From positions 3,710 through 67,709 of the forward strand of contig JACPQL010000049.1 in the NCBI GenBank assembly GCA_016190445.1: DNA of 64,000 nt, read 5' to 3'. Below, piece after piece: positions 42,836 through 63,232 of the stretch; positions within the stretch are counted from its first letter, which is position 1, and each line of letters opens with the position of its first letter. The DNA comes from Chloroflexota bacterium (lineage in GTDB: Bacteria; Chloroflexota; Dehalococcoidia; Lucifugimonadales; JACPQL01). The notes beneath the pieces were generated by a model. The model saw only the letters and a program-made list of their open reading frames with translations. It made no database searches and was not told where the DNA came from. A program made the position numbers and the translations under genes.

Positions 42836-42922
42836 CGGGGGTCTGGGGGTGTCCCCCAGATTCATTCTTCTCTCCCTCTCCCTTGCCAAGGGAGAGGGAG
42901 ACACAGGGGGGTGAGGGATTTC
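42836..42922 (+). repeat. hairpin-rich intergenic repeat, copy A (partial)
   Basis: cgggggtctgggggtgtcccccag...ccctctcccttgccaagggagaggg...ggggggtgaggg. Shares the 3' two-thirds of the element at 58996-59115 and (inverted) 54985-55095. Confidence 0.7.
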
Positions 42923-45871: not shown

Positions 45872-45943
45872 CGGGGCGTGGCCCAGCGGTAGGGCACCTG
45901 GTTTGGGACCAGGAGGTCGCCAGTTCGATCCTGGCCGCCCCGA
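45872..45943 (+). tRNA. tRNA-Pro (anticodon UGG)
   Basis: Folded by hand: acceptor CGGGGCG/CGCCCCG, D arm GCCC-AGCGGTA-GGGC, anticodon arm CCTGG-TTTGGGA-CCAGG, variable loop AGGTC, T arm GCCAG-TTCGATC-CTGGC, discriminator A. No encoded CCA. Confidence 0.9.
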
Positions 45944-51865: not shown

Positions 51866-52576
51866 CTATCCTTGGCAACCGACCCCGTCTTTGTTGGCGT
51901 CTAACCTGTGGGGGTCGGGCGGCAAGACGCGGAACCGCCGGTATGGGATGTCTGCGCAGTCCAGGTCTGGCGGCGGTGATGGTATGCACACATCGGGGTA
52001 TGCAGGGTCACACCGACCTGCCACCGGGGTTTCAGAGCCCGGTGCTGCCAGGCCCCACATGCCCATGCCTTGCTCGTGCGCTCGCCTTTGCAGGCTCAGG
52101 AACAGTTGGCTGTACTTCACGTCGGGGGGGTAGGTGGTGACCTGAGCATAGCCTTCAGCAACCAAAGTGGCGTTGGCCATCGTGCCGTTCTCCAGCCAGA
52201 CGTACCGTAGCAGGCGCCCATATTGGTCGGTCTCGCTCATGTCCTTCTCCAGACAGACAGCCTTGCCAAGAACAAGCTGGTGATTGCGGGCAGATGCTTC
52301 TCTGCCGTAGGGCTGCTCGCCCACTGTGGGGTGCACCGTCTCTGGAGCGTCGATGCCTATGTAGCGCACGCGGTAGTCTTGGGTGTCAATTAACACGTGG
52401 ATAGTGTCACCATCCACGATCTTGACCACCAGCGCTGGCGTCATGCTGGGACACGGGTTGCTGGGGGTGGCAGTTGTCGTAGGAGCAGGCGTTGGCGTGG
52501 CGGTGGGGGCCAAGGTAGGTGTGCAGGCAAGGACGAGGCTGAGAACACTCAAGAGCGTCACCACGACCTGTCTCAT
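51866..52576 (-). CDS. secreted thermonuclease (SNase) lipoprotein with a C-terminal Excalibur Ca-binding domain
   Basis: Lipobox LVLAC plus a Thr/Pro linker, VVKIVDGDTIHV, VRYIGIDAPE, YGRLLRYVW, and a C-terminal DANKDGVGCQ. Confidence 0.85.
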   Translation of the reverse strand: MRQVVVTLLSVLSLVLACTPTLAPTATPTPAPTTTATPSNPCPSMTPALVVKIVDGDTIHVLIDTQDYRVRYIGIDAPETVHPTVGEQPYGREASARNHQLVLGKAVCLEKDMSETDQYGRLLRYVWLENGTMANATLVAEGYAQVTTYPPDVKYSQLFLSLQRRAHEQGMGMWGLAAPGSETPVAGRCDPAYPDVCIPSPPPDLDCADIPYRRFRVLPPDPHRLDANKDGVGCQG

Positions 52577-54229: not shown

Positions 54230-54880
54230 TCACTTGATCAGCCCCCTCTCCACAGCGACTCGGACCGCCTCAGTCCTGCTCCCAGCCCCCAGTTTGGACA
54301 TGATACTGGCGACGTGGCTCTCGACGGTCTTTGCTGAGATCGAAAGGTGCTGGGCTATCTCCATGTTTCGGAGCCCCTGTGACATCAGTTCGACCACGTC
54401 AATCTCCCGCAAAGTGAGTTCGTCCGGCTGCGAGCGCCCGATGGCCGGGCGCTCTTGGGAGTAGCTACGTATTACCTTGGATGCTATCGGGGACGGCAGT
54501 ACGGCTCCGCCCTCCGCAACCTCGCGGACGGCTTGCACCAGTGTCTCCTGCGGCGCGTCTTTCAGGAGATACCCGTCAATCCCAAGCCTGACGGCCGCCC
54601 TTACATACTGGTCGAAGTCGTATCCCGTAAGCACGAGAAGTTTCAGGTGCGGGTGTTGCTGGCGCAGCAAGCGAACCAGCTCGAGCCCTGACATCCCGCG
54701 CAATCGGATATCCACAATCGCAACCGACGGCTGCACTTGTGCCAGCAGCCCGAGAGCCTCCTCTGCCGAAGCTGCCTCTCCCACCACCAGGATGTCAGAC
54801 TCCTGCTCCAAGCGGTTCCGTATGCCCTCGCGGAACATGCGCTGGTCTTCGACAATGAGGACTTTGATAGGCAGCTTCAC
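54230..54880 (-). CDS. NarL/LuxR-family response regulator (ComA-like position in the cassette)
   Basis: KVLIVEDQRMFREGI, AIVDIRLRGMSG, LTLREIDVVELMSQGLRNMEIAQHLSISAKTVESHV. GTG start, 216 aa. Confidence 0.9.
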   Translation of the reverse strand: MKLPIKVLIVEDQRMFREGIRNRLEQESDILVVGEAASAEEALGLLAQVQPSVAIVDIRLRGMSGLELVRLLRQQHPHLKLLVLTGYDFDQYVRAAVRLGIDGYLLKDAPQETLVQAVREVAEGGAVLPSPIASKVIRSYSQERPAIGRSQPDELTLREIDVVELMSQGLRNMEIAQHLSISAKTVESHVASIMSKLGAGSRTEAVRVAVERGLIK

Positions 54881-54984
54881 CAGGCGCCCTTTCTACCTGT
54901 CGCGTGCACTAGTACTTGCTTTCTGAAGTCAGCGTTATCATGCGCAAGCCTTCTCCCTCACGCTCGCGCCTCATTCGCCCAATG

Positions 54985-55095
54985 ACCCATCCCCCTCGAT
55001 CCCCCTTCCTTTTCTGGAAGGGGGAAGAAGAAGGGAGCTGGGAGACACCCCCAGACCCCCGCCAGAGGGGGCCGCGCCCCCTCTGGACACCCCCG
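54985..55095 (-). repeat. hairpin-rich intergenic repeat, copy B (inverted relative to copy C)
   Basis: The reverse complement reads gggggtgtccagagggggcgcggccccctctggcgggggtctgggggtgtctcccagctcccttcttcttcccccttcc...ggaagggggatcgaggggga and aligns along its length with 58996-59115. Confidence 0.7.
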
Positions 55096-55131
55096 TAAAC
55101 GAATTTTGGGAGACTTCACCTGTCGTGTGCA

Positions 55132-57453
55132 CTATGGGAGGGGCACGGCGGCAACCACCGTGGTCCCCACTCCAGGCGCAGACCGAATCTCAAAAGAACC
55201 GTTCACCTGTACAATCCTCTCGCGCATCCCGGAGAGCCCGAACCCCTCTTTGCTGTCAAAGTCTGGGCTGAACCCGACCCCGTCGTCCCGCACCTCAATG
55301 CCCACCCGCCTGGCCTGCCGTGACAGGGACACGTCTATGCGAGTGCCGTGGGAGTGCTTCATCGCGTTGTTGGTGGCCTCCTGGGTTACACGGAACAGGG
55401 CCAGCTCCGTATCTGCCGGAAACCTCTCATCTTCATCCACGTCATGCAGCGACAGTCGAGTTACCATGCTGGATTGTCGTGATACTCCCTCCAGGAGCCA
55501 CTCAAGGGCCGCAGCAAGCCCCAAGTCGTCAAGGACTGCGGGCCTGAGGCGCGAGCAGATCTCTCGGAGCTCAGACGCAAGCTGGCGGGCCATGCTGGCT
55601 CGGCCTTCTGCGCCCTTCGGAAGGTCGAGCATGAGCGCCATTGCCTTCTGAAGAGGCCCATCGTGGATATCACCGGCCATGCGCGCCCGCTCGTCTTCTG
55701 CTGCTCTGACTAGCCGCTGGTTCAGCGCTCGCAGCTCCTCCGCAAGTTGGCTCTTATCAATCGCCAGGGCTAGCAGGGGCGACAGGGTGGCGACGAATCC
55801 TTTCTCCTCCGCCAGGAACACCTCTCCGCCCTCTTTCGGGCCCAGCAGAATGCGGCCAAGGCATCGCCCCGATAGTTCCAGGTTTACCAGTAGGAAGGAA
55901 TCAGACTCCCATCTGAGGTCAATGACTCCCCGACTGTCTGGCGCTCTGGCGGAGGCTTCAAGCTGGGGAGAGAGGCGCTGAAGTACATCGTCGGCCCGAG
56001 GCCCAGCCTTCGCTATTGGCTGACGTGCTCCGTCACCGGTCCCTGGGAGAACAATTGCTGACTCGAGGCGAAGCACCTGCGCAAGCTGCTTCGCAATTGT
56101 CTCCCCTACCATGATGGTACGATCGGAGACGAGGATGTTCCGATGGACGGTCTCCAGGGCAGTCTGGTAGTCCACTACGTCTCTGTAAATGAGGTTGTCC
56201 ACCAGCCACCACGCTCCGCGACGCAAAGGGAGAAACAGGGCTATGCCGCCAACCAAGATTGCGACGTTGAGAAGCCTCAGGTTTCCGCTGCGACCCGCCC
56301 TGCCAGCCAGTGGTTCAATCACCACCATGCTGATTGCGAGTAAGACGAGCAAGGCCAGAGTTGCCACGCCGTAGACCATGCCACGGTGGACCAGTCGTCG
56401 GATTCCCAGCAACTGATGCTGGAGAATAGCATAGGCGAAGGAGGCAGGCATGACTCCGAGGGCGAGCACTGTGATGTGGTCAGGAAGTAGGGATGAGCGC
56501 CCCAAGACTTTGGGCATGAGGGAAAGACCCGCAAAAGGCACTATACTCAAGGCTGTTCCCCACAACAGCAGTCGGGCTTGGATTTGGCCGAGCGCCGACC
56601 GGCGCCGCACTGCCTCGACCAAAAGCACTGTGAATCCACCTAGAACTGAGGCCGACACGAAGAGCAGGACCGCTGGCCTCACCACCGCGTAGAGAGACGG
56701 GGTGGCCAGGAGGGAGACCCCATAAGAGGCCCCAAGGAAGAGCCCCACGCCTGCGAACATGAAGGTGAGGGAAGGGTGTCGTGAGTCTGTAGGACCACGG
56801 GTGATGGCGGACACAAACGGAAGGAAAGACTGGCCAATGCCGATGAGGCTAATGCCCTGAAGGATACGTGCCCAGTAGGGCGCGGGTCCCCCGGCGCTGG
56901 GCCCCACCGCCAGGGCTACTGCCACGAAGCCTGCAAAAACCCAGAACATCCTGGCTGCGGCGAGGTCGGGCCGACGCAGGACGACGGCCGAGCCCAGCAA
57001 GGCGAACATTGCGCCGATGGCCCACAGCGAGAACTTCATCGGGCTGCGGGACATCGCTGGGTAGGTCATCTCCATGCGGAGTATGTTTCCACCAGACCCC
57101 ATCATCTCAATCTGCACAACGGGCCCTCGGGGAGCAGCGTCAATGTCGCCTGCTGTCACGCTCCGCCCGTTCACAGACAGGACTGGCATCCCTGGCCTGG
57201 CGCCGTAGAACCAGCCCAGGCCCCCTGGCACGGCTCTCGAAATGCAAGGTGCCTCTCCGCAAAGCCCTACCTCGAGACCCAGGGAGCCTGACTGCAACGT
57301 GGACCCGTAGGAGGCCACGGCCAGAGCCGAGTAGACGGCGACCAGGAAGAACGCCGCGAGTCTGGGAAAGAGAGAGCTATAGGCGGACAGAGGCCCGCTA
57401 AACCGCGACAGCCACCGCTGGTTGGTCAACCACGGAACCGAGGAAGTCTTCAA
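55132..57453 (-). CDS. polytopic (~10 TM) sensor histidine kinase, HisKA_3 + HATPase_c (ComP-like architecture)
   Basis: 773 aa. One N-terminal TM, a ~100-aa extracytoplasmic segment, about nine further hydrophobic helices and a cytoplasmic linker, then H-box ERARMAGDIHDGPLQKA and ATPase blocks EATNNAMKHS, DDGVGF and GFGLSGMRERI. TTG start with GGAGGTGAGG upstream. Overlaps the upstream gene by 56 nt. Confidence 0.85.
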   Translation of the reverse strand: MKTSSVPWLTNQRWLSRFSGPLSAYSSLFPRLAAFFLVAVYSALAVASYGSTLQSGSLGLEVGLCGEAPCISRAVPGGLGWFYGARPGMPVLSVNGRSVTAGDIDAAPRGPVVQIEMMGSGGNILRMEMTYPAMSRSPMKFSLWAIGAMFALLGSAVVLRRPDLAAARMFWVFAGFVAVALAVGPSAGGPAPYWARILQGISLIGIGQSFLPFVSAITRGPTDSRHPSLTFMFAGVGLFLGASYGVSLLATPSLYAVVRPAVLLFVSASVLGGFTVLLVEAVRRRSALGQIQARLLLWGTALSIVPFAGLSLMPKVLGRSSLLPDHITVLALGVMPASFAYAILQHQLLGIRRLVHRGMVYGVATLALLVLLAISMVVIEPLAGRAGRSGNLRLLNVAILVGGIALFLPLRRGAWWLVDNLIYRDVVDYQTALETVHRNILVSDRTIMVGETIAKQLAQVLRLESAIVLPGTGDGARQPIAKAGPRADDVLQRLSPQLEASARAPDSRGVIDLRWESDSFLLVNLELSGRCLGRILLGPKEGGEVFLAEEKGFVATLSPLLALAIDKSQLAEELRALNQRLVRAAEDERARMAGDIHDGPLQKAMALMLDLPKGAEGRASMARQLASELREICSRLRPAVLDDLGLAAALEWLLEGVSRQSSMVTRLSLHDVDEDERFPADTELALFRVTQEATNNAMKHSHGTRIDVSLSRQARRVGIEVRDDGVGFSPDFDSKEGFGLSGMRERIVQVNGSFEIRSAPGVGTTVVAAVPLP

Positions 57454-58402
57454 GGCGCCTCACCTCCACGCCGCGGGCCCCGAGGCCAAGCAGGCTGGCC
57501 TTTGCCCTGTTGAGGAACACCTCGGCCACCACGGCGCAGAAAACCCTGGCACCGGAAGCCTCGAACTGGCGGCCCGTGCTGGCACGGTCCCGCTCTAGTT
57601 CGGCGTGGTGCCGCACACCGCCACTCTTGACGGGTGATTGTAGCAGGGAGCGACAGAAAAAGACTACGGGCACGGTCTGTTTGTGCCGTGCCAGGTCTCC
57701 CGGCAGACCCCGTTCTGGGCACACGTCCCTCATGTCGTCCACCAACTGGGCATACGTGAACAGATTGAGGCCGAAATCGCCCAGGACCCTGATGGTCGTG
57801 GACCCAGCCCCTGCGAGCGAGGCACCGAACTCCGCCGCCAGCCTGCCCAGCGAGCCTGCTTTGAGCGAGGTCATTGAGAGGGCCTGGTCCATGCGGGTGA
57901 GGGGGCTCCTCTCCAGGGAGGCGTCCATGAATTGTCCTGCGCAGGACTGGAGCGAAGTCCGGAACAGTCTGTTCAGAGCTTTGAAAGCGCGATTTCGTGG
58001 GCCTTGCTGTTGCGCCGCTTCGCTGGCGGCTGCAAAGGCACAGACCATTAGGGACACGGCCAGAGACAGCTCCTCCGCATCGGTACTGGCCAGCTCAATG
58101 CCAACGTCCTGATCGGCCAGGTGGTCGAACATGTAGGCTGAGTCCATCAGTAGCTCAACTGCGGCTGCCCCGCGGACCGCCTGCCTCGTAGGCGGCCCAG
58201 AGACGGCCTCAAAGGCGTGCAGGCAGAGGGCGCCGGTGTGGCAAGGGGCCTCCGGATGCAGGACAAGACCCGGCCGGCCCAGGGCGCGCAGCATGGCATC
58301 CCGGTGGGCCGGCTTCTGGCAGTGCCGGGTAACGCTTAGCCTGGCCTCTTGTCTTAGTGCGTCCAACACTGGACCGGCACCCCCTTCCTGAGCCGTCTTC
58401 AA
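57398..58402 (-). CDS. polyprenyl-diphosphate-synthase-fold protein with a degenerate first Asp-rich motif (ComQ-like candidate peptide prenyltransferase)
   Basis: AAAVELLMDSAYMFDHLADQD (FARM position, no DDxxD and no RRG), AGQFMDASLE...SLKAGSLGRLAAEFGASLAG, FTYAQLVDDMRDV (SARM), GLPGDLARHKQTVP. TTG start 3 nt after the peptide ORF stop. Confidence 0.6.
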   Translation of the reverse strand: MKTAQEGGAGPVLDALRQEARLSVTRHCQKPAHRDAMLRALGRPGLVLHPEAPCHTGALCLHAFEAVSGPPTRQAVRGAAAVELLMDSAYMFDHLADQDVGIELASTDAEELSLAVSLMVCAFAAASEAAQQQGPRNRAFKALNRLFRTSLQSCAGQFMDASLERSPLTRMDQALSMTSLKAGSLGRLAAEFGASLAGAGSTTIRVLGDFGLNLFTYAQLVDDMRDVCPERGLPGDLARHKQTVPVVFFCRSLLQSPVKSGGVRHHAELERDRASTGRQFEASGARVFCAVVAEVFLNRAKASLLGLGARGVEVRRLEDFLGSVVDQPAVAVAV

Positions 58403-58405
58403 GAC

Positions 58406-58615
58406 TTAGAACCACTCGCTCGTAGCTGGCTGCCCAATCCCGCCAGTGTCCGGTTTTGCTTGCAGCCGCTTCAGCAGGCTTCTTGCCGCGCTGGCAAACT
58501 CGTTGGTTGGCGACGCGCCACCGTCTTCGCCAGCGGCTAGACCCGCCAATGCGGGTCGCATGGGGCTGGTGCGGGTGGCCCTCGATAGGGCCTTCTCCAA
58601 TTCACTAAGTTTCAT
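58406..58615 (-). CDS. 69-aa candidate pheromone precursor (ComX-like) ending ...GQPATSEWF
   Basis: GGAAGGAGG, a 5-nt spacer, then ATG 58615. Product MKLSELEKALSRATRTSPMRPALAGLAAGEDGGASPTNEFASAARSLLKRLQAKPDTGGIGQPATSEWF. The 91-aa track ORF start at 58681 lacks an RBS. Confidence 0.5.
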   Translation of the reverse strand: MKLSELEKALSRATRTSPMRPALAGLAAGEDGGASPTNEFASAARSLLKRLQAKPDTGGIGQPATSEWF

Positions 58616-58663
58616 ATGGGCCTCCTTCCTGTACTTGTACTTGGCTGCGCGCCCGACGGCGGG

Positions 58664-58692
58664 AGAGTATGCCCTGCACAAGCGGAGTGCAA
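58664..58692 (-). promoter_or_regulatory. candidate promoter of the peptide-transferase-kinase operon
   Basis: Minus strand reads TTGCAC (58692-58687), a 17-nt spacer, then TACTCT (58669-58664). It is overlapped by the inverted repeat TGCAC-7 nt-GTGCA (58675-58691). Confidence 0.3.
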
Positions 58693-58702
58693 CCGTGCCT
58701 TA

Positions 58703-58728
58703 GGGGCTTTCACTTAGGTGAAAACCCT
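58703..58728. promoter_or_regulatory. palindromic candidate operator TTTCAC-N4-GTGAAA
   Basis: GGGGCTTTCAC-TTAG-GTGAAAACCCT, with a perfect 6-4-6 core at 58708-58723, about 93 nt upstream of the peptide ATG and just upstream of the candidate -35. Confidence 0.4.
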
Positions 58729-58995
58729 GAGTGTCCAGGTGAGCAGATGGCTGGTGGGTACGCCCTGCAAATGCTCAGAGGCCGCCTCGCCTTTGCCTTT
58801 CAAACGGACCTTGTGATTTTCGGGACACTCTGGAAGCTAGGACCGGCCGCGCTGGCTATCTGGCATGTGCATCAACGGGGACCTCTCTCACCTGGCGGGA
58901 GTCGGGGGTTTCACGGAGGGGCATACCCCGGCCCCACGGATGTGCCAGGTGAGCCGCCAATCTACCATACAAGGAAGTCATCTGAAAACTCGGTC

Positions 58996-59115
58996 CTGGG
59001 GGGAGTCCAGAGGGGGTTCCACCCCCTCTGGCGGGGTTCTAGGGGTGTCCCCTAGCTTCTCTCTTCTTTCCCCCTCTCCCTTCAGGGAGAGGGGGATCAA
59101 GGGGGTGAGGGTTTT
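58996..59115 (+). repeat. hairpin-rich intergenic repeat, copy C (full length)
   Basis: Hairpin 1 is CCAGAGGGGG-TTCCA-CCCCCTCTGG and hairpin 2 is CCCTCTCCCTT-C-AGGGAGAGGG, followed by GGGGGTGAGGG. Ends at the start of the next regulator ORF. Confidence 0.7.
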
Positions 59116-59193
59116 CAGATGAGTTCAAGTTGTGCCAGGGTGCAGTGGCTTGCAGGACCGGCAACCTGGCAAGAATCGCCTAAGGAGAGGAAC

Positions 59194-59874
59194 TTGAGCA
59201 CGGCCACGACTGCACGCCCGATCACCGTCCTAGTAGTTGACGACCACGAACTGGCCCGCCAGGGAGTTAGGCAATTCCTCAAGCCAAGCAGGCACATCAA
59301 GGTCGTAGGCGAAGCAGCGAACACCTCTGAGGCCATCCGTCTCATGAGCCAACTCCAACCGAGCGTCGTCCTGCTCGATATCCGGCTCGGCCAGGGCAGC
59401 GGCCTGGATGTTGCCCGGGCTGCCAAGGCGAGTGCCCCAGACACCAAGGTGCTGGTCCTCAGTGCCTACGACGATCGGCAGTACGTCAGCAGATCGAAAA
59501 GGCTGGGCGTCGCGGGGTACTTGATGAAAGGTCTCTCCCCGGAAGAACTCTCCAGGGCCGTCGAGGATACGGTCCATGGCAGACCCACATCTGCTCGCGA
59601 AGTGGCAGACAAAGTGTCCGGCCATGCCACACCGCACTGGGGGACCACCCAGAGGGTCCCACAAAGAAGGGAACTGACGGTGCGCGAATCGGAAGTGCTG
59701 GAACTCATGCTACAAGGCCTGCGAAATCGCGCCATCGCTGCTGCTTTGGGCATCTCCGTAAAGACCGTGGAAACCCATGTTGAGCACATACTTTTGAAGC
59801 TGGAGGCGGCTAGCCGAACGGAGGCCGTGCTTGCTGCCATCAAAGGCGGCTGGTTGGAAGAGGCTGTGTCTTGA
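59194..59874 (+). CDS. NarL/LuxR-family response regulator
   Basis: ITVLVVDDHELARQGV, VLLDIRLGQGSG, LTVRESEVLELMLQGLRNRAIAAALGISVKTVETHV. TTG 59194 is preceded by TAAGGAGAGG; the track start 59119 lies inside the repeat. Confidence 0.85.
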   Translation: MSTATTARPITVLVVDDHELARQGVRQFLKPSRHIKVVGEAANTSEAIRLMSQLQPSVVLLDIRLGQGSGLDVARAAKASAPDTKVLVLSAYDDRQYVSRSKRLGVAGYLMKGLSPEELSRAVEDTVHGRPTSAREVADKVSGHATPHWGTTQRVPQRRELTVRESEVLELMLQGLRNRAIAAALGISVKTVETHVEHILLKLEAASRTEAVLAAIKGGWLEEAVS

Positions 59875-60000
59875 CTCGCGGACTGGTGACCTTACCAGCG
59901 GAGGGCAACAATCGAAGGACACACCGCGGGTAATGAGGCCGCGAGGTCCGGGAATTGCCAGAGAGCGCAGCAAGTGCGGTATGCGTTCTAGAAAAGTAAC

Positions 60001-60855
60001 TTGGCCGTTATGAACAGCATGGAAGGCGCCATAAGGGTGCTCTTGGTGGATGACCATCACATGGCCCGAGAGAGCCTGCGCCGCGTGCTTGCCGTGGAAC
60101 GAGACATACAGGTCGTCGCCGAGGCGTCGGATGGGCTAGAGGCGCTGGCAAAAATTCAGTCACTCGGGCCGGACGTTGTTCTCATGGACCTCCGAATGCC
60201 GAATATGGGCGGGCTGGATGCCCTGCAAGCCCTGAAAAGGATGAACCTCACGCGGAAGGTCATTGTCTTCAGTTTCTACGAGGAGTATCTGGCACGGGCG
60301 ATTGACGCTGGCGTGGGCGGTTATCTGCTCAAGGACGTGCCGCGTGGGGAGGTGCCCAACGCCATCCGGCGGGTGTACCGTGGCGAGTTGGTGCTCGGAA
60401 GCACTATCCGTTCCGGCCCTCAGGCGACTGCAAGCGTACTTCAACGTCTACAGGGAATAGGGCGCGTGAGGCCCGTGTCTCCTGAACACCGGGTAGAAGC
60501 AGAGCTGCTGATACAAGCGCCGGTGGAACCCACTCAGTTGCTTGAATTTATGGCTGGACTAAGACGCGACTTGGAGGCGGAGATTGCGGAGATGGCGCCT
60601 TTGCCGGGTGATCGAGGGATACGCCTCCGACTGATGCTACCTCTACGTGCCCCAGTGAAAGACACCTTGTCGGAATTGCCGCAGGTAGAGTCGCTGCTGG
60701 AAGAGCAGCCGACGGGAGGATTTCACCAGGAAGGGTACGGCGCCCTTGGCCGGGATGCCGGTCTTCGATTTCGTGTCGCTCTCAAGTGCTCGTCCGCTGA
60801 CACAGGCCGGAGGGATGCCGGGCCGCTCGCGGGTCAACCGGGCGCCAGCGGCTAG
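60001..60855 (+). CDS. REC-domain protein with an unrecognised ~140-aa C-terminal domain (no HTH seen)
   Basis: IRVLLVDDHHMARESL, VLMDLRMPNMGG, GVGGYLLKD, then EAELLIQAPVEPTQLLEFMAGLRRDLEAEIAEM... with no family recognised. The start is TTG 60001, ATG 60010 or ATG 60019. Confidence 0.7.
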   Translation: MAVMNSMEGAIRVLLVDDHHMARESLRRVLAVERDIQVVAEASDGLEALAKIQSLGPDVVLMDLRMPNMGGLDALQALKRMNLTRKVIVFSFYEEYLARAIDAGVGGYLLKDVPRGEVPNAIRRVYRGELVLGSTIRSGPQATASVLQRLQGIGRVRPVSPEHRVEAELLIQAPVEPTQLLEFMAGLRRDLEAEIAEMAPLPGDRGIRLRLMLPLRAPVKDTLSELPQVESLLEEQPTGGFHQEGYGALGRDAGLRFRVALKCSSADTGRRDAGPLAGQPGASG

Positions 60856-61030
60856 CTGGGCAGTCCGTGCGAGGGAACCCAGCAGTTCGGGACGTGCTTG
60901 AGGACTGCATTGGGAATGAGGAAGGCAGGGAATGCGTGAGCGAACTGTCACTGCTGCCGCTCGTCCGGGTAGACGCCATGAATCAGTGCGTCGGCAATCT
61001 CGTGAGTCGAACGGTTCAGGGTCCAACCGA

Positions 61031-63232
61031 ATGCAAACAGAGGAGGAAGCTGAGGCGTTCCTGGAATTGCTGCCGGACGCTGTGGTGATCGTTGACCGTG
61101 AAGGGCACATAACATATATCAACGGCGAGACGGAAAGGATGTTCGGCTACAGCCGTGCTGAAGTGCGCGGAGTGGCCGTGGAAATCTTGATGCCCGAGCG
61201 CTTCAGGAAGCGACATAGTGAACAACATGCGAAGTACTTCTCGGACCCGCGAGTCGAGCCGATGGGGATCGGCTTGGAGAAATACGGCAGACGCCGTGAC
61301 GGTAGTGAGTTCCCTGTTGACATCATGGTCAGCCCCTTCAGGACAAGAGCTGGCTCCGCGTTCATTGCTGTTGCTCGTGACGTCAGTGACCGGAAGCGCA
61401 TGGAGGAGGACCTGCTCAAGGCAAACCGCGGGCTCAGGATGCTGAGCCGCTGTAACGAAGTGTTGGTGCACGCCACTGAGGAGTCAGACCTACTTCAGAA
61501 TATATGCCGAATCGTCGTGGAGATCGGTGGATACAGACTGGCGTGGGTCGGGTTTGCCGAGCACGACAACAGGAAGAGGGTGCGCCCCGTAGCGCAAGCG
61601 GGGTGCGAGCAAGAATACCTTGACGGGCTGGATACCAGATGGTCGAATGCCAAACAGGGTCGCGGCCCCACCGGGCAAGCTATCCGCCTGGGCAAACCGT
61701 CAATAATGCGTGATATCTTGCGGGACCCCAACTACGAACCCTGGCGCGCTCAAGCAGCCGAGCGAGGCTTCGCATCGTCCATCGCCCTGCCTCTCACCGC
61801 CGGTGGCAGTACGTTCGGAGCACTGAACGTCTACTCAGCGAGGCCGGACGCTTTTGACGGCGACGAGGTGAAGCTGTTGATGGAACTCGCAGCCGACTTG
61901 GCTTATGGCATCATGGTCATCCGCACTCGTGCACAGCACAAGCGCACGGATGAGGCGCTGCGTTCCAGCGAACACCTGCTGGCCAACGTCTTGCGCCTGG
62001 CACCAGACGCCGTCATATCAGTTGATGAAATGCAACACATCCGCCTTTTTAATCGGGCAGCCGAGGTGATTTTCGGCTACTCTGCGGAAGAGGTAGAAGG
62101 GAAGCCGCTGGACGTCCTGTTGCCCGAGCGATTCGTTGAACTGCATCACGCACATGTGCAGGAGTTCAGCCAGTCGCCGGCGGCAGTGCGTTACATGAAC
62201 CAACGAGGTCCTGCGCACGGTCGGCGCAGGAATGGGACAGAGTTTCCCGCCGAGTGCGCCATATCCAAGGTGGAAAGCGATGGCCAGAAAACCTTCGTTG
62301 CGGTGGTGCGTGATATTACCGAACGCGTGCAAGCAGAAGAGACACTACAGGAGAGTAACCACCGGTTGGAGAAGGCGCTAGGAGACCTGAAAGCAGCGGA
62401 ATCGCAACTCGTCCGGCAGGAACGCCTGAACGCCCTGGCGCAGATGGCCGGAGGCATTGCTCACGACTTCAACAACGCACTGACGGGGATTATTGGCTTC
62501 AGCGACCTGCTGCTCAGTCGCCGAACGATCCTGAACGATAGGGAGCAGGTGACACGCTACTTGCGCCTGATAAACACAACCGCCATGGGCGCAGCGAGCA
62601 CGGTCCACCGGATGCGCGAGTTCTACCGAACTCGCCAGGATACCGATGTCTACGCGCCAGTCAACATCAACCAGGTGGTGGAGCAAGCCATCTCCCTCAC
62701 TCAGCCCAAGTGGAAGAATGAGGCGGAAGGAAGCGGCAGTGCTATCAGCATCCACACCGAGCTGGAGCAAGTGCCTCGCGTCGAGGGAAATGAGGGTGAA
62801 CTCCGGGACGCACTGGTCAACCTGATATTCAATGCGGTGGACGCGCTCGCTCCTCCGCATCGGGGTGAGGGGCCATCGAAACAAGGAATAATAGGTCTCC
62901 GCACTCGGGACCTGGGGGACCATGTGATTGTCGAGGTGACGGATACCGGCGTTGGGATGACCGAGGAGGTCCGGCGACGTTGCCTGGAGCCGTTCTTCAC
63001 CACCAAGGGCCAGGTAGGGACAGGCCTGGGCCTGGCGATGGTCCACGGCACCGTTCAGCGGCACAATGGGTCAATTGACATCGCGAGCGCACTGGGTGAG
63101 GGGACCACCGTCAGCATCCGCCTCCCCGTCCACGGCGCGCAGAAGGGAGAGGGAAGTTGGACAGCAACACCAGCCGCGTCGCGCCCGCCGATGGAGGCGT
63201 GGGGGCCGCCCGCGGGGCTACAAGTGTCATGA
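61031..63232 (+). CDS. cytoplasmic PAS-GAF-PAS sensor histidine kinase (HisKA + HATPase_c)
   Basis: LLPDAVVIVDREGHITYING (PAS), GYRLAWVGFAEHD...GFASSIALPL (GAF), LAPDAVISVDEMQHIRLFN (PAS), MAGGIAHDFNNAL (H-box), DTGVGM, GTGLGLAMV. The Arg-rich track N-extension from 60932 was dropped. Confidence 0.88.
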   Translation: MQTEEEAEAFLELLPDAVVIVDREGHITYINGETERMFGYSRAEVRGVAVEILMPERFRKRHSEQHAKYFSDPRVEPMGIGLEKYGRRRDGSEFPVDIMVSPFRTRAGSAFIAVARDVSDRKRMEEDLLKANRGLRMLSRCNEVLVHATEESDLLQNICRIVVEIGGYRLAWVGFAEHDNRKRVRPVAQAGCEQEYLDGLDTRWSNAKQGRGPTGQAIRLGKPSIMRDILRDPNYEPWRAQAAERGFASSIALPLTAGGSTFGALNVYSARPDAFDGDEVKLLMELAADLAYGIMVIRTRAQHKRTDEALRSSEHLLANVLRLAPDAVISVDEMQHIRLFNRAAEVIFGYSAEEVEGKPLDVLLPERFVELHHAHVQEFSQSPAAVRYMNQRGPAHGRRRNGTEFPAECAISKVESDGQKTFVAVVRDITERVQAEETLQESNHRLEKALGDLKAAESQLVRQERLNALAQMAGGIAHDFNNALTGIIGFSDLLLSRRTILNDREQVTRYLRLINTTAMGAASTVHRMREFYRTRQDTDVYAPVNINQVVEQAISLTQPKWKNEAEGSGSAISIHTELEQVPRVEGNEGELRDALVNLIFNAVDALAPPHRGEGPSKQGIIGLRTRDLGDHVIVEVTDTGVGMTEEVRRRCLEPFFTTKGQVGTGLGLAMVHGTVQRHNGSIDIASALGEGTTVSIRLPVHGAQKGEGSWTATPAASRPPMEAWGPPAGLQVS

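Follow-up and report, generated by a model that had tools for sequence, protein, structure and literature searches.

In the ComQXPA system of Bacillus subtilis, ComQ isoprenylates a tryptophan (Trp) of ComX, ComP senses, and ComA regulates (PMC4008528). No ComQXPA system was found outside Firmicutes in a census published in 2014 (Dogsa 2014, PMC4008528). In Paenibacillus alvei, a Trp prenyltransferase resembling trans-isoprenyl diphosphate synthases shares a gene cluster, palP-palX-palQ, with a precursor peptide and a histidine kinase (PMC10853753). StheX of Sphaerobacter thermophilus is a peptide of 69 residues with Trp at positions -3 and -2, and the residue farnesylated by StheQ is the penultimate Trp (bioRxiv 10.64898/2026.08.29.745113, 31 August 2026). 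According to the same preprint, crystal structures of StheQ contain one Mg2+ at the first Asp-rich motif (FARM; D85, D89, and D91), K174 and Q212 contact the diphosphate, and the pseudo-second aspartate-rich motif (pseudo-SARM) consists of N215/D216/D219, in which the N215D exchange loses 98% of activity. The leader of StheX is predicted to be structured, and the biological role of StheX was stated to be unknown. In the present study, we analyzed a 64-kb window (the whole stretch of contig JACPQL010000049.1 under study, assembly GCA_016190445.1) and found four genes, designated X, Q, P, and A and arranged in the order X-Q-P-A, that probably form a peptide-pheromone circuit of the ComQXPA type in an uncultured member of Chloroflexota.

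A ComQXPA-like cassette had been proposed in an earlier sequence-only reading of this window, and comparative evidence from synteny, a peptide family with Trp at position -2, the motifs of Q, and the architecture of P now supports this proposal. The same reading regarded the signaling chemistry as characterized only in the Bacillus group. This claim is out of date because PalQ of Paenibacillus (PMC10853753) and StheQ/StheX of Chloroflexi have been characterized. The kind of system is, therefore, already known from ComQXPA, palP-palX-palQ, and StheQ/StheX. In the searchable literature, we did not find a description of a complete Chloroflexota sensing circuit, the X precursor family, a subfamily of Q with two adjacent Asp residues in the second motif (DD-type), or the conserved operator.

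The four open reading frames (ORFs) are co-directional on the minus strand in the order X-Q-P-A (Table 1), and were found where the sequence-only reading had placed them. The four-gene neighborhood was sought in related contexts, which were gathered by exact look-ups and pattern scans of reference genomes and metagenomes. The order X-Q-P-A recurred in approximately 30 fetched loci of Chloroflexota/Dehalococcoidia, essentially all of those long enough to show it. Approximately 40 relatives of Q were found at 40–55% identity, and every one was from Chloroflexota, Dehalococcoidia, or a metagenome. A typical related locus consists of an ORF of 61–71 amino acids, Q, a kinase of approximately 770 amino acids overlapping the end of Q, and a REC-GerE regulator of 216–223 amino acids. 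The coding overlap between P and Q is 56 nucleotides in the window and 32–59 nucleotides across the related loci, in which X and Q are separated by 13–55 nucleotides. Since the same order recurs in essentially every sufficiently long related locus, the arrangement of the four genes is far beyond chance. The position of the peptide gene before the transferase gene, which had been pointed out earlier, was confirmed. However, other systems share it: the Chloroflexota relatives examined generally have this order, and palP-palX-palQ has it as well. Searches for Q-then-X synteny, such as the 2014 census, miss X-Q-P-A systems.

The start of X, read earlier as GGAGG, 5 nucleotides, and ATG before a product of 69 amino acids, is present in the sequence. 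The C-terminus is ...GGIGQPATSEWF (final residues SEWF), with Trp68 as the penultimate residue. A search with the single sequence retrieved X alone. A family profile built from locus-derived small ORFs retrieved 51 database proteins, giving a family of 69 distinct sequences with lengths of 61–71 amino acids. Trp occupies position -2 in all 69, exactly one residue follows it, and in 65 of the 69 it is the sole Trp within the last 45 residues. The sequence-only reading had allowed that the small ORF might not be conserved; its 69 homologues all end in W-x-stop. The residues E7, E39, A43, R50, and W68 are invariant, and the leader follows the pattern M-E-I-x-E-[FL]-E-K-A-x-R ... RPALA ... LPxEF..A..TL..R. 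Column identity is lowest in the tail (0.19 at positions 51–60 vs 0.5 in the leader), and there are 41 distinct last-six sequences among the 69 members. No Pfam or NCBIfam model matched X of the window, and a comparison of 22 family members with Pfam at E values of up to 10 gave no match to ComX (PF05952), Frankia_peptide (PF14407), or NHLP. From these comparisons, X appears to represent a real and new precursor family that is absent from Pfam and NCBIfam.

The last residue of X varies (S, A, M, T, V, W, I, L, and F), even between otherwise near-identical peptides. For example, near-identical members (such as P0043, P0044, P0046, and the peptide of locus L021) end in ...AAQWS, ...AAQWM, ...AAQWA, and ...AAQWW. 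PDZ domains classically bind C-terminal tails. The residue after Trp may be a specificity determinant because this is the position that a PDZ domain would read.

The sequence-only reading gave Q 334 amino acids, beginning 3 nucleotides after X. This ORF exists from an upstream TTG. However, GGAAGGGGG stands ahead of a GTG/TTG at codons 12/13 (58369/58366), and this is likely the true start, giving 322–323 amino acids, because it agrees with the 322-amino-acid protein called by NCBI and with where all homologues begin. The gap between X and Q would then be approximately 36 nucleotides instead of 3. Q matched Pfam polyprenyl_synt (PF00348) with an E value of 1e-13 over residues 58–251, and its best NCBIfam scores were 74.8 and 66 bits vs equivalog cut-offs of 450 and 475. 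The structure of Q alone, for which the sequence-only reading expected a trans-prenyl diphosphate synthase fold, was predicted using AlphaFold2, and the model has the trans-isoprenyl diphosphate synthase (trans-IPPS) fold (predicted local distance difference test [pLDDT] score, 83; predicted template modeling score, 0.84).

The first motif of Q is F-D93-x-x-A-D97-x-[DE]99 (FDH-LADQD) with no RR after it, and the GKRxR position in the Q family is occupied by RPG[FL]xLHP and an insertion of approximately 8 residues. In the same alignment, the canonical synthases P0040 and P0041 show GKRLR and DDxxD...RR. Because GKRxR and the post-FARM RR are missing, the elements that bind isopentenyl diphosphate (IPP) appear to have been lost in the Q family. 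Q keeps GQxxD (D160), K181, and Q219-x-x-D222-D223-x-x-D226 (QLVDDMRD), and D222, D223, and D226 do not vary among 17 family members. When 1.84 billion representatives were searched with a profile, 78 matches had E<=1e-30 and 1300 had E<=1e-10; of the 150 matches listed, 1 contained GKRxR. The close family is entirely Q-x-x-D-D, and many of the next-tier matches (100–135 bits) are Q-x-x-N-D-x-x-D (N-D-type). Q belongs to a distinct subfamily because its second motif is a canonical DDxxD in place of the N-D pseudo-SARM of ComQ/StheQ. The nearest relatives outside the family are StheQ-type proteins adjoining Trp-tailed peptides. Grouping of Q with chain-elongating synthases, which the sequence-only reading had named as evidence against itself, was not observed; GKRxR and the post-FARM RR are missing, and the nearest outgroup is of the StheQ type.

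As a stand-in for StheQ, we used an orthologue from a Sphaerobacter sp. metagenome-assembled genome (MAG), which was found by the published residue fingerprint and matches 11 of its 13 residues. Q is 25% identical to this orthologue (E 1e-12) and 27% identical to another N-D-type Q over 312 residues (E 7e-27). Q and StheQ are near-collinear: D93/D97/D99 correspond to D85/D89/D91, D160 to D153, K181 to K174, and Q219 to Q212. Q differs from StheQ at two published positions, with H94 for E86 and D222 for N215. A separate observation concerns two loci, L021 and L026, in which X and residues 1–430 of P are 100% identical, whereas Q is just 94% identical. The transferase gene alone may, thus, have diverged locally, recombined, or been affected by an assembly artefact.

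A peptide with Trp at position -2 was found upstream of Q in every N-D-type locus opened. L036 and L037 encode an X of 66 amino acids (...LDWWV), Q, a kinase of 783 amino acids, and a REC-GerE regulator. L040 encodes an X of 65 amino acids (...EAWG), Q, a kinase of 768 amino acids, a REC-GerE regulator, and a REC protein, and in L038 and L039, an X of 69 amino acids (...NYWA) is followed by Q and by a P-like gene that runs off the end of the contig. The X-Q-P-A layout, therefore, spans both DD-type and N-D-type enzymes in Chloroflexota. In the Sphaerobacter sp. MAG (L035:6710-7852, GCA_029961075.1), a StheX-like gene of 69 amino acids (...SLGWWS, Pfam Frankia_peptide) is located upstream of the StheQ-like gene. 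No kinase or regulator accompanies this pair; instead, it is surrounded by two methyltransferase genes and three radical-SAM genes of the B12-binding type, which suggests that the StheX-like peptide is further tailored. The peptide-first order in this MAG is at odds with the wording of the preprint, in which stheX is "immediately downstream" of stheQ.

P was read earlier as a kinase of 773 amino acids with a 56-nucleotide overlap with Q, about ten transmembrane helices, an H-box, and HATPase_c, and this description was borne out. HATPase_c matched residues 683–772 (1.6e-16), the Pfam HisKA_3 match was weak (4e-3), and P is strongly homologous to the HisKA_3-class kinases NarQ/UhpB/LiaS. The H-box is GDIHDGPLQ, with H597. 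Approximately 10 hydrophobic segments occupy residues 28–410: transmembrane helix 1 (TM1) at approximately 28–46, and nine more to approximately 410. An extracytoplasmic PDZ-like domain is predicted between TM1 and TM2 (residues approximately 47–140; DNA approximately 57034–57315), and residues 451–566 form a weak GAF-like region. P is 31% identical to the L036 kinase over the full length (E 6e-81), and loop 1 of P aligns to the stretch of that kinase that matches Pfam PDZ_6 at 3.3e-8. A loop-1 profile of 12 family members, run against PDB sequences, matched almost solely PDZ domains, namely Scribble (best, 9.7e-7), PSD-95, SNX27, site-2 protease, and DegQ.

We compared P with the ComP architecture described in PMC9620489 and PMC4008528. 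In the model of Bacillus amyloliquefaciens ComP, a PDZ domain that separates TM1 from TM2 is the proposed ComX-binding site, and the ten transmembrane helices are followed by HisKA and HATPase_c (PMC9620489), and 10 transmembrane helices were predicted for most ComP proteins in the 2014 census (Dogsa 2014, PMC4008528). Because P combines approximately 10 transmembrane helices, a PDZ-like domain between TM1 and TM2, and HisKA_3 and HATPase_c, it appears to match ComP in its specific sensor design, beyond being a multi-transmembrane kinase. In two related loci, the kinase frame downstream of Q is split or shortened (L003:7188-9242, 105 and 509 amino acids; L011, fragments). These frames may represent decayed receptors or assembly errors, and possibly mark signal producers that no longer sense.

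The regulator A, which had been read as a REC plus LuxR/GerE protein of 216 amino acids after a 251-nucleotide spacer, matched Pfam REC (6.8e-26) and GerE (3.3e-19), with D57 as the putative phospho-acceptor residue. The profile hidden Markov models named in the sequence-only reading, thus, matched for polyprenyl_synt, HATPase_c, REC, and GerE, with HisKA_3 being weak. A is the most conserved member of the cassette, with 87–97% identity among related loci. Between pairs of related loci, identity is 74–90% in the C-terminal part of P, 65–84% in its N-terminal part, 70–83% in Q, and 47–87% in the tail of X. This gradient runs in the direction of the Bacillus pherotype loci, with which it is consistent. 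However, it is not conclusive because the comparisons are between lineages and without a housekeeping baseline.

Table 1. Genes of the X-Q-P-A cassette and associated features in the 64-kb window.
Feature	Position	Strand	Description
X	58406..58615	-	Precursor peptide of 69 amino acids; ORF and ribosome-binding site
Q	57398..58402	-	334 amino acids from the upstream TTG; trans-IPPS fold, putative peptide Trp prenyltransferase
P	55132..57453	-	ComP-like sensor histidine kinase of 773 amino acids
A	54230..54880	-	NarL/ComA-class response regulator of 216 amino acids; REC and GerE helix-turn-helix
Divergent REC-GerE regulator	59119..59874	+	Pfam; paralogue of A
Palindromic operator-like site	58704..58728		Phylogenetic footprint upstream of X
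Second, weaker operator-like site	58904..58928	+	3 mismatches to the motif; faces the divergent regulator gene
78-nucleotide repeat, arm in the P-A spacer	55017..55094		GC-rich, hairpin-containing, inverted pair
78-nucleotide repeat, second arm	58999..59076		Between X and the divergent regulator gene

A palindrome, AGGGTTTTCAC-CTAA-GTGAAAGCCC, is located approximately 90–113 nucleotides upstream of the start codon of X, and is followed by a conserved CGGTTG (-35-like element). Of 25 distinct loci, 17 carry the motif GGGnTTTYCAC-nTAn-GnGnAnGCCC at -101 to -120, and several related loci contain a second copy at approximately -250 to -300. Most motif matches in 225 kb of locus sequence (24 of 27) fall <=330 nucleotides upstream of X. 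In the 64-kb window, the motif is confined to the intergenic region upstream of X, where both sites in Table 1 are located; 0.03 occurrences would be expected by chance. With its inverted repeat at constant spacing from a -35-like element, this region resembles the site of a dimeric NarL/LuxR-class activator. We infer that A or its paralogue may bind the palindrome, and the position of this putative operator upstream of X suggests autoinduction.

The proposed circuit would operate as follows. X would be translated as a precursor of 69 amino acids, and its conserved, helical leader would dock on Q. Having lost the IPP site, Q would bind an allylic diphosphate (probably C10–C15) through D93/D97/D99 and Mg2+, and prenylate the indole of Trp68, as StheQ does on StheX and ComQ on ComX. 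A protease and an export route would release a short C-terminal lipopeptide, the sequence of which, especially its last residue, would be lineage-specific. The PDZ domain of P between TM1 and TM2 would sense this peptide outside the cell, P would autophosphorylate at H597, and the phosphate would pass to D57 of A. Perhaps together with the divergent paralogous regulator, A would then bind the palindrome, induce X, and control further targets. A broader proposal, which we consider evenly balanced, is that this family, which is widespread among uncultured Chloroflexota (Dehalococcoidia included), would be the first prenyl-peptide quorum-sensing circuit of the ComQXPA type outside Firmicutes to be complete, with signal, modifying enzyme, receptor kinase, regulator, and autoinduction operator. 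It would comprise a new precursor family, a Q with a full DDxxD that perhaps uses a two-site metal mechanism or gives a different prenylation outcome, and C-terminal residues serving as PDZ-read pherotypes.

Several points weigh against a ComQXPA-type circuit. The cassette encodes no protease or exporter. Homology between X and ComX was not detectable, and the leader of X, which is collinear over 51 columns with those of three StheX-type peptides (hhalign), matches them weakly (probability, 30%). The PDZ assignment rests on profile matches, and the single-sequence model of the loop was unusable (pLDDT, 39). A between-species gradient of divergence is partly expected for any membrane sensor vs response regulator. 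Regarding Q, position 2 of FARM is non-acidic (H94), and the second motif is DDxxD, with an invariant D at the first position where ComQ/StheQ have N. The mutants N186D and N215D in the second motif of ComQ/StheQ lose approximately 90–98% of activity (bioRxiv 10.64898/2026.08.29.745113). D222 is the main caveat for filing Q as a member of the ComQ/StheQ family, and with D in place of N, the mechanism of Q may differ from theirs. In PalQ, ChrPC, and Ord1, however, a conserved Gln and the first Asp of SARM are near the indole N-H (2026 review, PMC13290415). Since these enzymes use Asp at this position, D222 is not incompatible with Trp prenylation. The best solved-structure matches of Q are also GGPPS-like enzymes (GGPPS, geranylgeranyl diphosphate [GGPP] synthase); Foldseek against the PDB gave TM-scores of approximately 0.72–0.75 to GGPP and polyprenyl synthases. 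Because the best solved-structure matches of the Sphaerobacter StheQ orthologue are likewise GGPPS-like (3nf2 and 1wy0), these matches do not discriminate function, and the Foldseek result confirms the generic trans-IPPS fold only.

The structural matches form part of the case for regarding Q as an ordinary short-chain prenyl diphosphate synthase (GGPPS-like) next to a small ORF that is conserved but functionally unrelated. The canonical DDxxD and Q-x-x-D-D fit such an enzyme, the best Pfam and NCBIfam matches are also polyprenyl/GGPP synthases, and homologues of Q were named geranylgeranyl pyrophosphate synthase by JGI (the Joint Genome Institute). However, we regard this explanation as highly improbable. 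GKRxR and the post-FARM RR(G) are missing, position 2 of FARM is non-acidic, the NCBIfam scores are far below the cut-offs, and the orthologue of a proven peptide prenyltransferase has the same GGPPS-like best matches. Moreover, Q is strictly syntenic and translationally overlapping with the kinase, and adjoins a peptide in which Trp is the only invariant residue of the tail.

Two other explanations accept the prenylation of X and differ in its role. X may be a prenylated peptide of the class made by ribosomes and modified after translation (RiPP), such as an antimicrobial or surfactant lipopeptide, with a main role other than density signaling, and P-A may serve for producer regulation or as an immunity sensor, similar to NisRK for lantibiotics. 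The natural-product-like context of the Sphaerobacter-type locus, with B12-radical-SAM and methyltransferase genes in place of a kinase and regulator, is consistent with this, as are the potential membrane activity of prenylated Trp peptides (PMC13290415) and the unknown role that the preprint gives for StheX. We consider a RiPP of this kind unlikely because the subfamily of the window conserves only X, Q, P, A, and the second regulator, with no further tailoring, transporter, or immunity genes, because the kinase has the ComP-specific combination of PDZ and 10 transmembrane helices, and because the operator upstream of X suggests autoinduction. Sensing of its own peptide through a two-component system would, in any case, be quorum-sensing-like. 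It is slightly less likely still that X is prenylated yet remains cell-associated as a membrane-anchored co-sensor or modulator of P, with signaling in cis or through contact. A prenyl group two residues from the C-terminus is reminiscent of a lipid anchor, and a PDZ domain could bind a tethered tail; the lack of a protease and exporter in the cassette and the well-conserved leader, predicted to be structured in StheX, point in the same direction. However, X has no signal peptide or transmembrane segment, whereas the PDZ domain of P is predicted to be extracytoplasmic. ComX is secreted even though its operon has no dedicated exporter or protease (PMC4008528, PMC10853753), and a variable tail with a conserved leader is the pattern expected of a leader/core RiPP.

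The divergent REC-GerE regulator is 46% identical to A, and a gene of this type is also located upstream of X in L001, L003, L004, and L006. In the window, it begins a second signaling set (59119–63232) adjoining the cassette, followed by a REC protein (60001–60855), the C-terminal domain of which (approximately 160 amino acids) is unassigned, and a kinase of 766 amino acids (60932–63232) that is PAS/GAF-like by eye. In L003, L004, and L006, too, the divergent regulator has PAS-type kinases beside it, and the pheromone circuit may, therefore, be connected to another two-component system.

The arms of the 78-nucleotide repeat are inverted and 82% complementary, bracket X-Q-P, and contain a perfect 10-bp hairpin (CCAGAGGGGG...CCCCCTCTGG); a partial copy is located at 42836–42859. 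The spacer between P and A is 251 nucleotides, in contrast to approximately 26–32 nucleotides in related loci, because one arm of the repeat sits there. The repeat may be an insertion resembling repetitive extragenic palindromic elements or miniature inverted-repeat transposable elements, or a terminator that uncouples A from X-Q-P. We also considered the cassette as a mobile element bounded by these inverted repeats, and set this aside; the repeat is missing from related loci, and no more than two full copies exist. Elsewhere in the window, a lipoprotein-like ORF on the minus strand (51866–52576) appears, by eye, to have a staphylococcal-nuclease-type domain and a Cys-rich C-terminal tail, and a tRNA gene (45872–45943, plus strand), distant from the cassette, is the only Rfam match. 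A scan for consensus promoters and terminators gave counts at the level of shuffled sequence and was uninformative, and the PADLOC library gave nothing relevant.

With a ComQXPA-type circuit as the favored explanation, the family in the window supplies the half that is missing from the Sphaerobacter-type locus, namely, a kinase with ComP architecture, a ComA-class regulator, and an operator. This makes peptide quorum sensing in Chloroflexota a directly testable hypothesis. The Chloroflexota are numerous, most of them have not been cultured, and the Dehalococcoidia of groundwater and sediments belong to them. Furthermore, Q is a natural D-for-N variant at a position that is critical in ComQ/StheQ, and is informative for the enzyme mechanism and for peptide-lipidation biocatalysis.

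Bacillus subtilis ComQXPA and the cassette share four components of similar sizes, including a transferase with the polyprenyl_synt fold, a REC-GerE regulator, and a kinase with approximately 10 transmembrane helices, PDZ between TM1 and TM2, and HisKA_3 and HATPase_c (PMC9620489, PMC4008528). Genes overlap in both, and across the lineages compared, the regulator varies less than the peptide, the transferase, and the sensor part, in a direction consistent with Bacillus. In length and Trp position, X resembles the ComX precursors (52–73 amino acids, with Trp within the last 5–10 residues). However, the order is Q-X-P-A in Bacillus, X has no similarity to ComX (PF05952), and Trp of ComX is at -3 to -5, whereas that of X is fixed at -2. 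The pseudo-SARM of Bacillus ComQ is N-D-x-x-x, in contrast to DDxxD in Q, which also has the non-acidic position in FARM. The window additionally has a divergent paralogous regulator, and its host belongs to Chloroflexota, unlike the Firmicutes hosts of the Bacillus-type census hits.

In palP-palX-palQ, the precursor gene also precedes the transferase gene, and both Asp-rich motifs are kept. However, PalQ is remote and annotated as a terpene synthase, and no response regulator was described in that cluster. PalX has an NHLP leader and its acceptor Trp is the last residue, such that a C-terminal extension abolishes activity (PMC10853753); neither applies to X. Canonical trans-IPPS enzymes (GGPPS and farnesyl diphosphate synthase) share with Q the fold, GQxxD, K(T/A/S), and Q-x-x-D-D-x-x-D, whereas their GKRxR and RR motifs are missing in Q, the NCBIfam scores of which are far below the equivalog cut-offs. 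The indole prenyltransferase Ord1 (PDB 9V4G/9V4J) also shares the fold, but its substrate is free tryptophan rather than a peptide. StheQ/StheX is from the same phylum, and shares with the cassette a peptide of 69 amino acids, a penultimate acceptor Trp, and a homologous enzyme without GKRxR and the post-FARM RR. The leader of StheX is of the Frankia_peptide (PF14407) type, whereas that of X appears to belong to a different family, which is absent from Pfam. In contrast to the Sphaerobacter-type locus, which has no kinase or regulator, the window contains a complete sensing half.

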